DNA of 41,744 nt, from contig LXFE01000417.1 in NCBI GenBank assembly GCA_001929475.1, positions 1 to 41,744 on the forward strand, in the 5' to 3' direction. The DNA comes from Neolecta irregularis DAH-3. Taxonomy: Eukaryota. The notes below the pieces were generated by a model. The model was given only the letters and a program-made list of their open reading frames with translations. It searched no databases and was not told the DNA's origin. Position numbers and translations under genes: made by a program. This document shows, in pieces, positions 2,886-40,133 of this stretch; positions within the stretch are counted from its first letter, which is position 1, and the number at the start of each line of letters is the position of its first letter.

Positions 2886-3377
2886 GAGCTCGATACCCGC
2901 TTGATTTCGACCGTCTTTTGTAACGAGTTCTCTGTTAGTTAGATGGAAACGTATGCCCAATAGATTATCACGTTAAACCGTCCATTGATTGACAACGTCA
3001 CATCAGCTATTTGTCCTTGTTTTGGATGTCATCCGGATAGTCTGCTCTTTAGCACTGGATCTAATTTAGAAAACCTCGTATCAAATATCTCAAGTCTTCA
3101 TTCCCCTCTCAATGGGCATACCCTTCAGTCTTTATCGGAAGCCTGGCCCTTCAAGACCTTCAGCGGCACCGTTAAACGATCACTAAAGTCCAGCTCAAGC
3201 ATGGAAATTCTTTCTTCCTTGAAACGATACTTTTCAATCGAAAATCAACAGAAACTTTCAGGATCATCTAGTTCTCAAAAGCTATTTCCGATATCACTAG
3301 GAGACTTTTGCAGGCAGAAAAGATCCTTGTTTATCTAGAAACATTCATAAATTCAAGTATCGAACGGCGTCGAAAAG

Positions 3378-33490: not shown

Positions 33491-34518
33491 ATGGTTAGCG
33501 CGCGGTTAAACGTTCCAAATCCAGGATTTGATTTCGATAATTACCAGAGAAACGCTCTGCTAGCTGTAAAAGGACAGAAACCGCCAAAAACCACTTCGAC
33601 TGGAACGACCATCGTAGGATGCTTGTACAAAGCCGATGACGGGTATATGTTCTTCGAATCTCCTGTTTATGAGATAGTTCAACTGGGGTATGTATTGGAG
33701 CAGATACAAGGGCTACATCTGGACCAATAGTGGCTGATCCTAATTGTGAGAAAATTCATAAAATTTCTGCGAACATTTGGTCCATAACCGCTTGCAATAT
33801 TACTGTTTCTTATGCTTTGTAGGTGTTGCGGAGCCGGAACTGCCGCGGACACAGAATTTACGACAAATTTGATCAACTCGCAGCTAGAGTTACATAGTTT
33901 ATGGACTGGTCGGCGTCCGAGAGTAGTCACAGCATTAACTATGCTGAAACAGCATTTATTCAAACACCAGGGACACATTGGAGCATATTTGGTACTTGGC
34001 GGTATCGTTTGTTTAGAGTAGAGTGAAATAACTTACACGATAGGTGTCGATCCTACCGGAGCACATCTGTTCACTGTCCATGCACATGGATCAACGGACA
34101 AACTGCCATTTGTATGGCCATGCTCACTTCCTTTCTAAATCTGTAGGTTACAATGGGATCTGGCTCCCTAGCGGCGATCTCTGTATTCGAAACCAGATGG
34201 GTTAAAGATTTGTCTCGAATTGATGCTATGGAACTGGTCAAAGATGCAATTGAAGCGGGTATCTTCAACGATCTCGGTTCAGGGAGCAACTGTGATGTCT
34301 GTGTGATTGAAAAGGACAAGGTATGGTGCAGCTTTTTGCAGCTTCTTCACATTCTCTAGACTCAGATGTACAGACATTACAGTGAACCGAATGAGCGCCA
34401 ACCGAAACAACAAAGTTATAAATTTCCTCATGGGACAACAGCCATTCTAAAGAGCGATATCTCCAAGTTTGTTACAATTGAAGATGTCGCAGGAGAAGAT
34501 ATGGAGGTCGATACTTAG
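33491..34518 (+). CDS. PUP1: 20S proteasome beta2 subunit (trypsin-like); 5 introns
   Basis: Propeptide [10 protein letters not shown], catalytic TSTG|TTIVG, and motifs [31 protein letters not shown] and [13 protein letters not shown]. Confidence 0.96.
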
Positions 34519-34969
34519 GCATTTTAATCAATATGAAAGGGTGTATGCACATAGGATCTTGTGTTTTGTTCTCCCAAGCTTAACAAAGTATATCCTGGGC
34601 AGTGATGTATAGAATCCATATTGATTCATAATGGATTCATGAATTTGAATCAGTGTTGCTGATGGACCAAAAGACCATGGACTTTTTGCAAAGTCTGGCC
34701 CATCGACTTTTCTGAGGGTCAGGCCCACTGATGAACCATAAAACATTACTTTTGCAAGTAGTCTCAATCTCAAACTATCAATCTCTAGTAGAGAAATGGT
34801 ATTAAAGTGTGACTAAACAAAAGTCTGACACACGTGTTGTCTTCCCATATGGTAAATGTTGGTGGGTATTATGTGCCTGCTCCTAAATCTCCAACCCACG
34901 TCATTTTGTCTTCCCTATTTCTGCTTTCAGCTCCCATCCATAAATTAGTCTGCCCCTTTTTTATTCGCT

Positions 34970-35799
34970 ATGGCCGTTTTCAAGAAGTTCTGGCAATGGC
35001 TGCTCTCGTGGTTTTGGCAGGCAAGCAAATCTTATAGCATGACTCTGACTTTCAAAGACTGAAATGGAGGTATAGCAAACCTGACTATGAGATTTCTTTG
35101 TACAGAAGCTGATGCAACTCGATTTTAGATCACCATCATTGGTCTTCAGAACAGCGGGAAGACCACCTTGCTTAATCTTTTGTCGGATGGTGACTTTATT
35201 AGCGATACTATTCGTATTTTCATAATGAAGGCTGTTTGCTGATAACTTTAGCGTACTTGCTGCTTCTGTGGCCGTGTTTTACTATCTAGCACCGTTGGCT
35301 TTAATTTTCGCAAGGTAATACGTGGTAATGTGACTCTAAAATGGTGCTGTTGTCTATATCTTCCAGAGAAACTGATTCATCAGTTGGGATCTTGGAGGAC
35401 AAGCGCGATTTCGAAGCATGTGGGATCGATATTGTCGAGGGATAAATGCTATAGTGTAAGCAGTCCTAATTTTTCGTATCCGTGATAACATGCAGCTTTG
35501 TGATCGATTCTTCTGACCACGATAAGCTGGCTACCTCTGCTGCAGAGCTCCACAATCTTCTCTCAAAGCCCGCGCTTGATCTCATTCCGCTTCTCGTTTT
35601 AGCGAATAAAAGGGATATGCCTAAAGCCCTAACCGTTGATGAAGTCATTGAGCAGATGTACCTCAATTATCTTGAAAGTGGAGCTAAACGGCATAGTCGT
35701 CTTGATTCGATTAAGGGTCGCGAGGTCAGTTGTTACTCAATTTCAGCTAAGGATAACTTAAATATCGAGCCCATCATAAGTTGGCTTGTTGCTCGGTAG
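34970..35799 (+). CDS. ARL8: Arf-like GTPase Arl8; 7 introns, including a GC-AG intron, a 12-nt exon and a 1-nt exon
   Basis: Spliced [25 protein letters not shown]...DTIPTVGFN...[20 protein letters not shown]...[10 protein letters not shown]...[11 protein letters not shown], with no Gly2, which is the Arl8 signature. Confidence 0.93.
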
Positions 35800-36084
35800 A
35801 TTTCATGTTCTTCAGACTTCTCACATCCAGGGCTAAGCGGTGAACGGGTGTTCATATTGATACCTTATTCACTTTTATCTTGGCGTTTATCCATATGGCA
35901 TGTGTTGTTTTGGTATCTTTGATTTGGTATGAGATGAAGGACTAACTGTTTGCATCTGTTTTCGTTTTCGTTCGTTTTTTAAGTCGAGAGAGGAGTTTTC
36001 ACACATGAAATTAAAAATTCAAGGATTAGATAGGATTCTGATGTAGATTCGTCAGCCAAGATTGCTCAATTCAACCTTTTTTCA

Positions 36085-36825
36085 TCAGATTTGATGATCT
36101 ATCTTCAACTTATTTTGGGTAAAATCAGACAACATCCATGCAATCAATCCCCCCAAAAAATATCCAATATATGCTCCTGTAATGATTGTAACAGGCCATT
36201 TCTTTGAATAAGCGATATATGTCAGAGGATAAGAAAATACCTGCCACTCTCTATTCCAATCCAGGGGTATAGGGAATGCACCCAACCAGGCTCCCGTCAT
36301 GACACAAATGCTCTGTGTGAATACTCTGGCATTTCCGTGATACATCAACGCATATACCTTTTGCCATTCTCCGTTGTCCAGCTGGATTATACACGCAAGT
36401 GGAAATACAGCAAGAAAGGCGATATTTAATGACAGCATTGTTGTTTCGGAAAATACTTGAAAGGCAGGCACACCAAACAGAACCATTAAAAGGTGTATCA
36501 CGAAGGAGCCGGCGAGTGTAACAAATGTTGCAAATGTTATGGGCTTCATGTGAGATAGAACAAGCAGAAAAACGCATACCATGGCGTTATTACTGATTGA
36601 ATACTTGAGTTTTACTTTGCCGGTCGATCTTTTGCTCAAAGGAAGACATAAAATTGCATATGTTGTTTGTAGACAGTATACCGATGGTAAAAGCGGACTC
36701 AGTAGAGTTGATGAAGGCGACAAAAGCAGTTTTTTCCACGCGGCGACCAGAAATACAAGAGGAAACACAGCATTGGTTAGATGGATAAATCTATCTGTGA
36801 ATGCGGAGAATGGTGTGGTTTTCAT
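36085..36825 (-). CDS. GPI11: GPI biosynthesis protein PIG-F/Gpi11; two in-frame stopless introns
   Basis: Motifs LMVLFGVP and GAWLGAFPIPLDWNREWQ|KWPVT. The 36-nt and 39-nt GT-AG inserts read through in frame. The start codon is uncertain. Confidence 0.9.
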   Translation of the reverse strand: MKTTPFSAFTDRFIHLTNAVFPLVFLVAAWKKLLLSPSSTLLSPLLPSVYCLQTTYAILCLPLSKRSTGKVKLKYSISNNAMVCVFLLVLSHMKPITFATFVTLAGSFVIHLLMVLFGVPAFQVFSETTMLSLNIAFLAVFPLACIIQLDNGEWQKVYALMYHGNARVFTQSICVMTGAWLGAFPIPLDWNREWQVFSYPLTYIAYSKKWPVTIITGAYIGYFLGGLIAWMLSDFTQNKLKIDHQI

Positions 36826-36947
36826 GGCATCAAATTTGACATCAACTCCTCATTTTTGTCATTTTTGTTCCACCGAGATGGTCACTTCTTTGCGTTGGGT
36901 ATCTTGCATATTAACGAATAATTTACTAATATTAGATAATCAAAAGA

Positions 36948-37666: not shown

Positions 37667-38214
37667 TTTACTTTCAATTGGTTACTGAACCCAAGTAAAT
37701 AGTTACTGATAAAGTAATTGGCTACTGAATCTAATGTAACACCCTTTCATAATAAATTTGATCTGTCGAGTCTGTCATATAGCTTTGTAGTAAAAGGCGT
37801 ATGACTGGTCGACATGATCAGTAACTAGACATTGGACCGCCTTTCTCTTGAGCTGCTACTTCAAATATCATATAGTGTGGCAACCTACTGTTCTAATTGA
37901 CAATTTAAGAAAACTTTTGTGGAAATCTGTTGACACGAGAGATTCCATTTTGAAAGCCTCTTCATTATGTCAGTTGACTAATCTCTTTCATAGAATTATG
38001 TGCATTACTATCTCTATCTATTGGTCTATAGATCTCTGGATATTCTAATTCTATTCAAGATGAAAATTGAATTCATTTCAATGTTTTCGGTTTTGTGGGG
38101 AGGCCACTTGATAGTTTTACTTTGTCACCGCCATCCTCCAAAGAGTTATAGGCATCAACAGAACCCTTTGGATTTCCAACTGTCTTTCAGGTAAAAAGAT
38201 TTCCTTTTACTCAT

Positions 38215-40133
38215 ATGGAGTTGTCACTCGGTCGCTTGACGCGATCTTCCTCCTTGATGTCTGTTACTTCCCTGGCCAGACAGTCATTTTCCACCCAGTT
38301 GTCCCGGTTGACTTCGCTATCTCTCCCATCAACTGAATATCTGCGTTCCAAGATATCTTCGCTGCAAACTCCGGAAGCGATCGTCTCACTTCGGGCATCC
38401 GGGCAGGATATTTTGAAATGGATAACCGTGGCTCAGGCTGTGCTCTCCGGATTGGACGCCGAAGACGATGTTGAATGGGCTGCAAGCGGAAAGGATTCAC
38501 TGGGAAAAGTAGAACTTGCAGTGACAAATTTTGGAGAGATAATCAAGACTTTTATTGAATTATCCGATGAGGTCAGCAGTCGTGATGATCCCAACCCTAC
38601 GAGCCTCGCTGAGCTGGTCCGAGGAATTGATTCAATTACCGATGCATGGGCAAAAGTCAAATCGACTTTGGATAATGTGAAAGAACAGGTTGAAATTTCC
38701 TTAGAATGGGTGGAAAGCATGCAGATCATTAATGATATCACAACCGAACTCGACGAGTGCCAAACCATCGCCTTTGAAATCGAGGAAGAACGACATAAAG
38801 CGCCAAAAGTGCTCGGCGAAGAAGGAGTTTGTCAAGAAAAGCCTTCTTTACCCAACTGGGGTCACCGAAGATCGAACACTTTCGACGAATCAAATATGTC
38901 TATGGTGAAATTAGATGGACGGATGCAACCACTACGCGCGAGTCTCGACTTTCTAAAACCTCGACTAGTCAGCTTTGCAAAAAGAGCTGATCTCGCGTTT
39001 CCTAGCGCAATATTAGAGTTGAACGAAAAGAGAAACCATCTGGAGAATCAGTGGAACAAATTGAAGAGCAATTATACGAGTTTGAAAAAGGAATTGGAAG
39101 ATGATCATTGGGTAGCTAGTTTTAAAAGTACTGCTGCACAAGTATATTCAAAGCTCTTTTACAAAGGTTGATTTTCCAGGCTAATCATATGATGGATTCG
39201 ATAGAACGATCATTACGAAGGGTGCAATCATATCTCTTGACTGGAGCCTCTAAAGATGCGGAGAAATGTGTCAAGACATACTATGCTAAACGTTCAGGAT
39301 ACGGTATAGACAAAACCCATGTATATTGTCTGACTGACAAAGGACCCCCAATTGAACGTGTCTTGACGATGTTTGAAAGCCATCTTCAGTCTCGTGGCAC
39401 ACTCAACGGCGTCATTCTTCGTACGAAATCCGTAATACAGAATCGTTGGGCGGAATTATCGAAAGAAATGGATCTTCTTGAACACCAGGTGGACTCTACC
39501 TTTTCGGACGGTATTAGTAGTATTAGTCTAAACGATATATCGGATTCAGGAAGCACCGCTCCAAGTGAACCATCTCGAGCGATTACCCCCAAAAGAATGT
39601 CGAATGCTTTACCGCCAAGCGTATTACCCCAAATGAAAAGTCCGACTCGAATTCCGTTGTCGACAAAACGGATAAGTTTGGCTCCTCAACATGCTCTTAA
39701 TACTCCAGCAAGGAACAATCGAGCTGTATCTCCAATTCCACCAAGAACCCTTCGTCGTCTGACTTCGTTTTCTTCGATGGGGAAGATTACGCCTCCTAAA
39801 CCATTGTGGAATTCATCCATCAAAGCAGACGATGTTTTTACAACTTTCTTGCCGAGCCCCGTTCACTCGCCTTCTTCGCAGACATTTCATGCTCGAATTT
39901 CATCAAATCCACCTTGCACAAACCATTTCAATGGTTCTGCAAAATCTTCAGATGGACTTAAGAGTATCGACGAAGTTATCAATCGCCGAGCAAGTTCAAT
40001 TCCCCGACCTCTTTCAGATATTCTTAGAGTGTCAAGACCACGGAGAGAGAGCGCAATGCATATACCAGCCTGCATTAAAAGCCCATTAAGCGAGAGCGGA
40101 GCGAATGGTAGGCCTAAACCAGCATGGAGATAA
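38215..40133 (+). CDS. KAR9: Karyogamy/microtubule-cortex protein Kar9-like; at least 2 introns, start possibly further upstream
   Basis: LSGLDAEDDVEWAASGK and MQPLRASLDFLKPRL match fungal KAR9-domain proteins. There is a Ser/Pro/Arg-rich tail with SxIP-like motifs (TRIP, SSIP) ending RPKPAWR*. Confidence 0.8.

Follow-up and report, generated by a model that had tools for sequence, protein, structure and literature searches.

Neolecta irregularis is an intron-dense, early-diverging ascomycete, and one of its small GTPase genes raises the question of whether a single base, a C lying between two very short introns, can be an exon in its own right. Within the window, by which we mean the whole 41,744-base stretch of DNA that was analysed, two coding stretches reading ...DTI and TVGFNFRK... 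share one frame and lie 78 nt apart, so that 75 bases have to be spliced out of the 78 and three left. The answer that we reach is that the middle one of these three, C35252, is a true exon, one nucleotide long, of a nuclear ARL8 gene (probability about 0.9).

Sequence layout and reading frame

We read positions 35213-35290 directly from the letters of the window as a C, a 38-nt intron with GT..AG borders, C35252, a 37-nt intron with GT..AG borders and a final C. The preceding ATT codon ends at 35212 with C35213 as the next base, and C35290 is followed by ACC GTT GGC. The initial annotation of this DNA had proposed that the motif DTIPTVGFN can be built through C35213, C35252 and C35290, and these coordinates were confirmed base for base; a spliced contig from the public run X2, described below, reads ATT-CCC-ACC. 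Once both introns are removed the three bases form CCC, the codon for Pro50. Taking out 35214-35289 as one 76-nt intron frameshifts the gene, as had also been claimed, with a stop reached after 9 codons by our computation.

C35252 is the only one of the 13 Cs within 35214-35289 that an AG precedes and a GT follows. The acceptor AG and the donor GT flank it directly in TTTAG-C-GTACTT (35247-35258), and the introns on either side are each complete with their own GT, branch-like motif and AG. Their earlier description as canonical and of the usual length holds good, both being GT..AG introns of 38 and 37 nt in a gene with introns of 35-59 nt and a median of 38.5 nt.

We also utilized a window-wide scan for tandem short introns lying 1-3 nt apart with open flanks. 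This returned two hits on the plus strand, both at this site, and ten on the minus strand, against 0-18 in 20 shuffles, such that the real hits were no better than those in shuffled sequence. Because such a pattern scan is not discriminating, the case for a one-base exon rests on frame, homology and RNA. An alternative donor at 35190, offered by the same scan, would delete GDFISDTIP from the protein and is contradicted by the X2 contig.

Identity of the gene and correction of the public model

The spliced translation carries the Arf-family G1 motif (GxxxxGK[ST]), the switch I motif PTVGFN, the G3 motif WDxGGQ and the G4 motif NKRD, leaving G1 to G4 intact. The proline encoded by the split codon occupies an alignment column in which 119 of 120 homologues have P, the neighbouring Thr51 and Asn55 being found in 118 and 116 of the 120 respectively. 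The last long exon finds matches of about 50% identity among ARL8 proteins of fungi, and where the best matches carry a source name it is for the most part ARL8 or ADP-ribosylation factor family. The 182-aa product shares 63.5% identity over 178 residues with ARL8 of Protomyces (P0004), and 96.3% identity with an unnamed protein of 163 aa (P0122) in a gapless alignment that takes in all 163 P0122 residues. P0122 contains DTIPTVGFN and matches the Pfam Arf family (PF00025) with an E value of 1.5e-44; the five solved structures that it matches best are those of human ARL8A/B with 217-221 bits, whereas Arf1, Arl1 and Arl3 reach no more than 115 bits. On these sequence comparisons we assign the gene as an orthologue of ARL8 (Arf-like GTPase 8), and the name first given to it, together with a fungal origin, finds support in the names of its homologues and in the human ARL8A/B structure matches.

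The deposited model (P0121, 35400-35843) is a protein of 116 aa named ARL8B of Neolecta irregularis DAH-3 and 100% identical to the query. It starts with MWDRYCRG, covers positions 74-171 of the 174 in the Arf profile and reads intron 7 through as 13 extra residues. P0121 is truncated, with the P-loop and switch I missing and the one-base exon overlooked. The deposited model fails because a 1-nt exon lies beyond what gene finders can place, and because an intron that is in frame and free of stops is read by them as coding. The gene model presented here corrects the public ARL8 protein from 116 aa to 182 aa.

Gene model

We built the gene model from the joints of the X2 contig. ARL8 comprises nine exons with coding lengths of 51, 12, 85, 1, 54, 72, 162, 99 and 13 nt, giving a CDS of 549 nt and a protein of 182 aa. 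The eight introns measure 37 (GC..AG), 59, 38, 37, 40, 40, 39 and 35 nt and are packed at about one per 69 coding bases, most of them falling at 35-40 nt, near the lower size limit. The features are as follows:

34970-35020, plus strand: coding part of exon 1, with the ATG at 34970 and an in-frame stop upstream; X2 record 11 covers 34886-35020, placing the transcript back to at least 34886
35021-35057, plus strand: intron 1, 37 nt, GC..AG; X2 joint 35020>35127, borders resolved by placing the microexon letters
35058-35069, plus strand: exon 2, a 12-nt microexon coding for TEME; X2 letters, with AG and GT flanks
35070-35128, plus strand: intron 2, 59 nt, GT..AG; X2 contig
35129-35213, plus strand: exon 3, 85 nt, from the P-loop (GLQNSGKT) to DTI and the first C of Pro50; frame and X2
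35214-35251, plus strand: intron 3, 38 nt, GTATTT...CTGAT-type branch motif...TTTAG; missing from the X2 spliced contig
35252, plus strand: exon 4, the lone C that supplies the second base of the Pro50 codon; X2 letter, with AG..GT flanks
35253-35289, plus strand: intron 4, 37 nt, GTACTT...TTTTACTAT...TCTAG; missing from the X2 spliced contig
35290-35343, plus strand: exon 5, 54 nt, starting with the third C of Pro50; frame and X2
35344-35383, plus strand: intron 5, 40 nt, GT..AG; X2 joint 35342>35383, cut shifted by +1
35384-35455, plus strand: exon 6, 72 nt, WDLGGQ...RGINAI; frame and X2
35456-35495, plus strand: intron 6, 40 nt, GT..AG; X2
35496-35657, plus strand: exon 7, 162 nt, including NKRD; X2
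35658-35696, plus strand: intron 7, 39 nt, GT..AG, in frame and stop-free; X2 joint 35657>35697, absent from P0122 and kept in P0121
35697-35795, plus strand: exon 8, 99 nt; X2
35796-35830, plus strand: intron 8, 35 nt, GT..AG; X2 joint 35794>35830, cut shifted by +1
35831-35843, plus strand: coding end of exon 9, AKR and the stop TGA, with the 3′ UTR beyond; X2

Intron 3 carries the branch-like motif GCTGATAAC near its 3′ end, while the corresponding motif of intron 4 (TTTTACTAT) is less canonical than the CTGAT/CTGAC found in introns 1, 2, 3 and 5.

Spliced RNA and genomic contigs

We compared contigs of two public runs, X1 and X2, with positions 34500-36500 of the window. The kind of both runs was guessed as "DNA?" and their organism labels differ. 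The RNA evidence consists of one assembled contig from one run, X2 record 11, and assembled contigs can be read for presence and not for absence, with isoform ratios, intermediates and rare variants not being visible in them. Record 11 is 1391 nt long with a word depth of 188.9, and every listed piece of it, UTRs included, agrees with the window at every letter. At the joint 35213>35290 it skips 76 nt (GT..AG) with exactly one letter, a C, between the two sides, and its own coordinates likewise leave exactly one unplaced letter there. The cDNA junction predicted by the initial annotation is the one found in this contig, a single Pro codon spread over three exons. Record 11 also lacks the other six short introns of ARL8, with GT/GC..AG borders, its remaining joints in the gene being 35020>35127 (with ten microexon letters between), 35342>35383, 35455>35496, 35657>35697 and 35794>35830. 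A further joint at 36201>36241 (CT..AC) is the intron of the convergent neighbour on the minus strand. As two convergent genes are both spliced at canonical borders within it, record 11 has the character of cDNA and not of a retrocopy. Only the fully spliced form of ARL8 is seen in the X2 contigs; no partly spliced form was found among them and the depth bins match exon cover only, a result to be read with the proviso that contigs show presence and not absence.

On the genomic side, X1 record 1 is a contig of 7269 nt with a word depth of 438.8 which is identical to the window over 34500-36500 (2001 bases, 0 gaps), X1 showing neither an indel nor a variant across this interval. These data bear on the alternative that survives best, in which the window assembly is short of one base, for example by a CC having been read as C beside 35213 or 35290, the gene having an ordinary 76-nt intron and the AG-C-GT within it being coincidental. 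The RNA would equally read ATT-CCC-ACC in that case. X1 may represent the window's own source reads, and is then not fully independent nor a separate individual; it can expose an error of assembly, but an error shared systematically by the reads would escape it. The exact match of the separately built X1 contig nonetheless makes the loss of a base from the window assembly unlikely. A 76-nt intron would moreover exceed every other intron of the gene (35-59 nt), whereas its two halves of 38 and 37 nt sit at the median and each has a branch-like motif. AGCGT occurs 14 times on the plus strand of the window, corresponding to about 0.02 expected occurrences per 76 nt. Taken with the point in its favour, we consider a missing base highly unlikely and C35252 to be the exon that it appears to be.

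A second alternative places the discrepancy in the RNA contig, which would come from another allele, strain or paralogue or from a DNA retrocopy with an extra C, leaving the copy in the window frameshifted as a dead or decaying gene. The different organism code carried by X2, the guessed kind of that run and the deposition of ARL8 as a fragment of 116 aa would all be in keeping with such an origin. The letter-for-letter agreement of record 11 with the window extends however into the UTRs, the spliced convergent neighbour on the same contig is impossible for a retrocopy, and X1 has no second DNA contig over the site. Removal of all eight introns from the window leaves one open frame of 182 aa with G1-G4 intact, which speaks against decay, and we consider this origin of the contig extremely unlikely. 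The idea that a single non-canonical 75-nt intron, or insertion or editing at the RNA level, restores the frame can be dismissed, for although any 75-nt removal formally keeps the frame, the four that are possible have the ends CG..CT, GT..TA, TA..AG and AT..GC and leave AGC, CGC, CGC or CGT (Ser or Arg) and never the CCC (Pro) of the contig, and we know of no process of nuclear mRNA editing in fungi that inserts a single C.

Proposed route of splicing

With C35252 taken as an exon, the locus contains two complete, independent, near-minimal spliceosomal introns lying one base apart inside the near-invariant switch-I proline codon of IPTVGFN. The initial annotation had proposed strictly intron-defined, ordered splicing, and established knowledge of the spliceosome suggests that splice sites this close together are paired across the intron, that is by intron definition. 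Introns 3 and 4 would then be removed one after the other and never together, because the U1 site of intron 4 (AGC/GTACTT, -3 to +6) overlaps the acceptor AG of intron 3 and because two spliceosomes cannot share 76 nt at once. The same mRNA should result whichever of the two is removed first, with intron 3 probably preceding intron 4 where splicing is coupled to transcription. Skipping of C35252 would yield a frameshifted mRNA and a GTPase truncated before switch I, which is presumably non-functional. The Discussion of a published plant case (PMC4674806), in the part available, likewise argues for intron definition and stepwise removal and also treats recursive splicing. An RNA fold that brings the sites together is unsupported by our calculations, which gave an MFE of -22.4 kcal/mol with a z score of -0.56 and no stable fold across the region.

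The locus is a stringent case, in that the base at stake is the middle one of a near-invariant switch-I proline codon, the introns beside it are 38 and 37 nt long, and a GC-AG intron elsewhere in ARL8 is followed by a microexon of 12 nt. Its 76 nt form a compact natural substrate for the order of splicing and for steric limits under intron definition.

Neighbouring features of the window

The neighbours of ARL8 are ordinary nuclear genes, among them a fragment of a proteasome subunit, a KAR9-like ORF and, on the minus strand, PIG-F; one neighbour has a weak Cullin-family match falling below the Pfam cut-off. The PIG-F gene (GPI biosynthesis) occupies 36085-36849 on the minus strand, convergent with ARL8, with a Pfam E value of 6.2e-37 and a 39-nt intron at 36202-36240. 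Since one RNA contig spans both ARL8 and PIG-F, their 3′ ends are close or overlapping.

Upstream of ARL8, at 34599-34727, lies a short repeated element over which the summed word depth in X1 rises from 438.8 up to 6554, and many short loose-ended contigs stop at 34670-34722. The repeat is also present in X2 and may be a dispersed MITE-like element. Two long open frames are found on the plus strand at 38152-39171 (339 aa) and 39126-40133 (335 aa), the first of which matches the KAR9 family with an E value of 4.2e-55. The two probably belong to a single gene, interrupted by a short intron or by a change of frame.

Relatives and origin of the intron pair

We scanned metagenomes with an alignment of 25 ARL8 proteins and considered the best 80 of 520 confirmed loci, a sample biased towards intron-free and transcript contigs. 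None of these best 80 is a close relative, identities being 62% or lower, and at this distance a split of the Pro codon was found in none of the 80. Residues 44-58 were matched without interruption in 77 of the same 80 loci. Four loci (L053, L070, L076 and L077), on contigs which we take from their appearance to be Pezizomycotina-like, have, at about positions 3070-3260 of each, an intron that splits the Asp codon of D-S-I-P-T-V-G-F-N between its second and third bases. This intron lies 8 nt upstream of the position of intron 3 in the window, near to it and not the same. On this sampling of sequences the intron pair does not appear to be widespread, although so biased a metagenome sample says little on its origin.

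Introns 3 and 4 have no detectable similarity to one another, that measured between them being equalled by 23% of 2000 shuffles, and an origin by tandem duplication is therefore unsupported. A broader reading, which we put forward tentatively and think rather doubtful, is that the one-base exon is a visible member of a class spread over the whole genome of this fungus. Pure intron definition would have let exons shrink to 12 and 1 nt in one gene, many truncated public models of this genome, like the 116-aa ARL8 fragment, would hide exons of 1-15 nt, and the intron pair would have arisen by lineage-specific gain of an intron beside an existing one. Were this so, the locus would be a natural test of minimum intron spacing and of the order of removal.

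Comparison with known one-base exons and related systems

Recursive splice sites are zero-length exons, AG-GT ratchet points at which an acceptor is followed directly by a donor. Stwintrons, the spliceosomal twin introns of fungi, consist of an external intron with one of its splice signals (donor, branch site or acceptor) broken up by an internal intron, so that the external one can be spliced only once the internal one has gone. Both resemble the ARL8 pair in having an acceptor and a donor nearly back to back, and both are removed in two steps, as is proposed for ARL8. A recursive splice site is rejected here as the C between AG and GT stays in the RNA contig, making it an exon and not a ratchet point. 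A stwintron is likewise rejected, introns 3 and 4 each keeping their own GT, branch-like motif and AG with neither interrupting a signal of the other.

Our searches of the literature on one-base exons and on Neolecta exons returned no title dealing with this locus or with Neolecta microexons, and the words "intron" and "exon" do not occur in the main text of the genome paper (PMC5309816) in the form available. The initial annotation had called one-base exons extremely rare, which is a fair description so long as it is not taken to mean unprecedented, cases having been published from Arabidopsis, Fusarium and Coprinopsis, with accurate splicing of the exon in the first two; we compare these below on the basis of the available portions of each paper.

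In Arabidopsis thaliana, APC11 contains a one-base exon (Guo & Liu 2015, PMC4674806). As in ARL8, canonical introns flank the exon on both sides, annotation had overlooked it and the frame cannot do without it. The APC11 exon is constitutive and its authors argue for intron definition with successive removal. The two differ in that APC11 is a plant gene of another kind, studied with GFP reporters in protoplasts where the identity of the base proved irrelevant, whereas for ARL8 there is one RNA contig. The flanking introns of ARL8, at 37-38 nt, are close to the shortest in the gene, a further point of difference from APC11.

Closer in lineage are the CYP621A P450 genes of Fusarium, whose one-nucleotide exon (Nelson & Syed 2026, PMC12940212) is presented in the text available as the first to be found in a fungus and the second altogether. 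The scenario given there is capture of a cryptic AG-N-GT following the loss of one base. CYP621A and ARL8 are both fungal, and in each the exon provides the second position of a codon that lies in a highly conserved motif, the Gly of PKG in the one and the Pro of IPTVGFN in the other; both exons were revealed by a phase mismatch of the flanking exons, with public RNA reads having confirmed that of CYP621A. The CYP621A exon is a G, in AG-G-GT, conserved in 24 genes, while that of ARL8 is a C, in AG-C-GT, from a single genome. The former is a P450 of Pezizomycotina and the latter a housekeeping GTPase of Taphrinomycotina. As PMC12940212 calls its own case the first fungal one, ARL8 would be a further and independent fungal case.

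The long-read annotation of Coprinopsis cinerea (PMC12230235) includes, in the portion available, 13 one-base exons in 13 genes together with 57 exons of 2 nt and 27 of 3 nt. C. cinerea is a fungus of short introns with such exons throughout its genome, and leaving them out breaks gene models. Unlike Neolecta it is a basidiomycete, and its exons are given as annotation statistics, with no individual case described in that portion of the text. Set beside these systems, the one-base exon of ARL8 is of a rare kind that has already been published, and it adds a new gene family and a third fungal lineage to those in which such exons occur.
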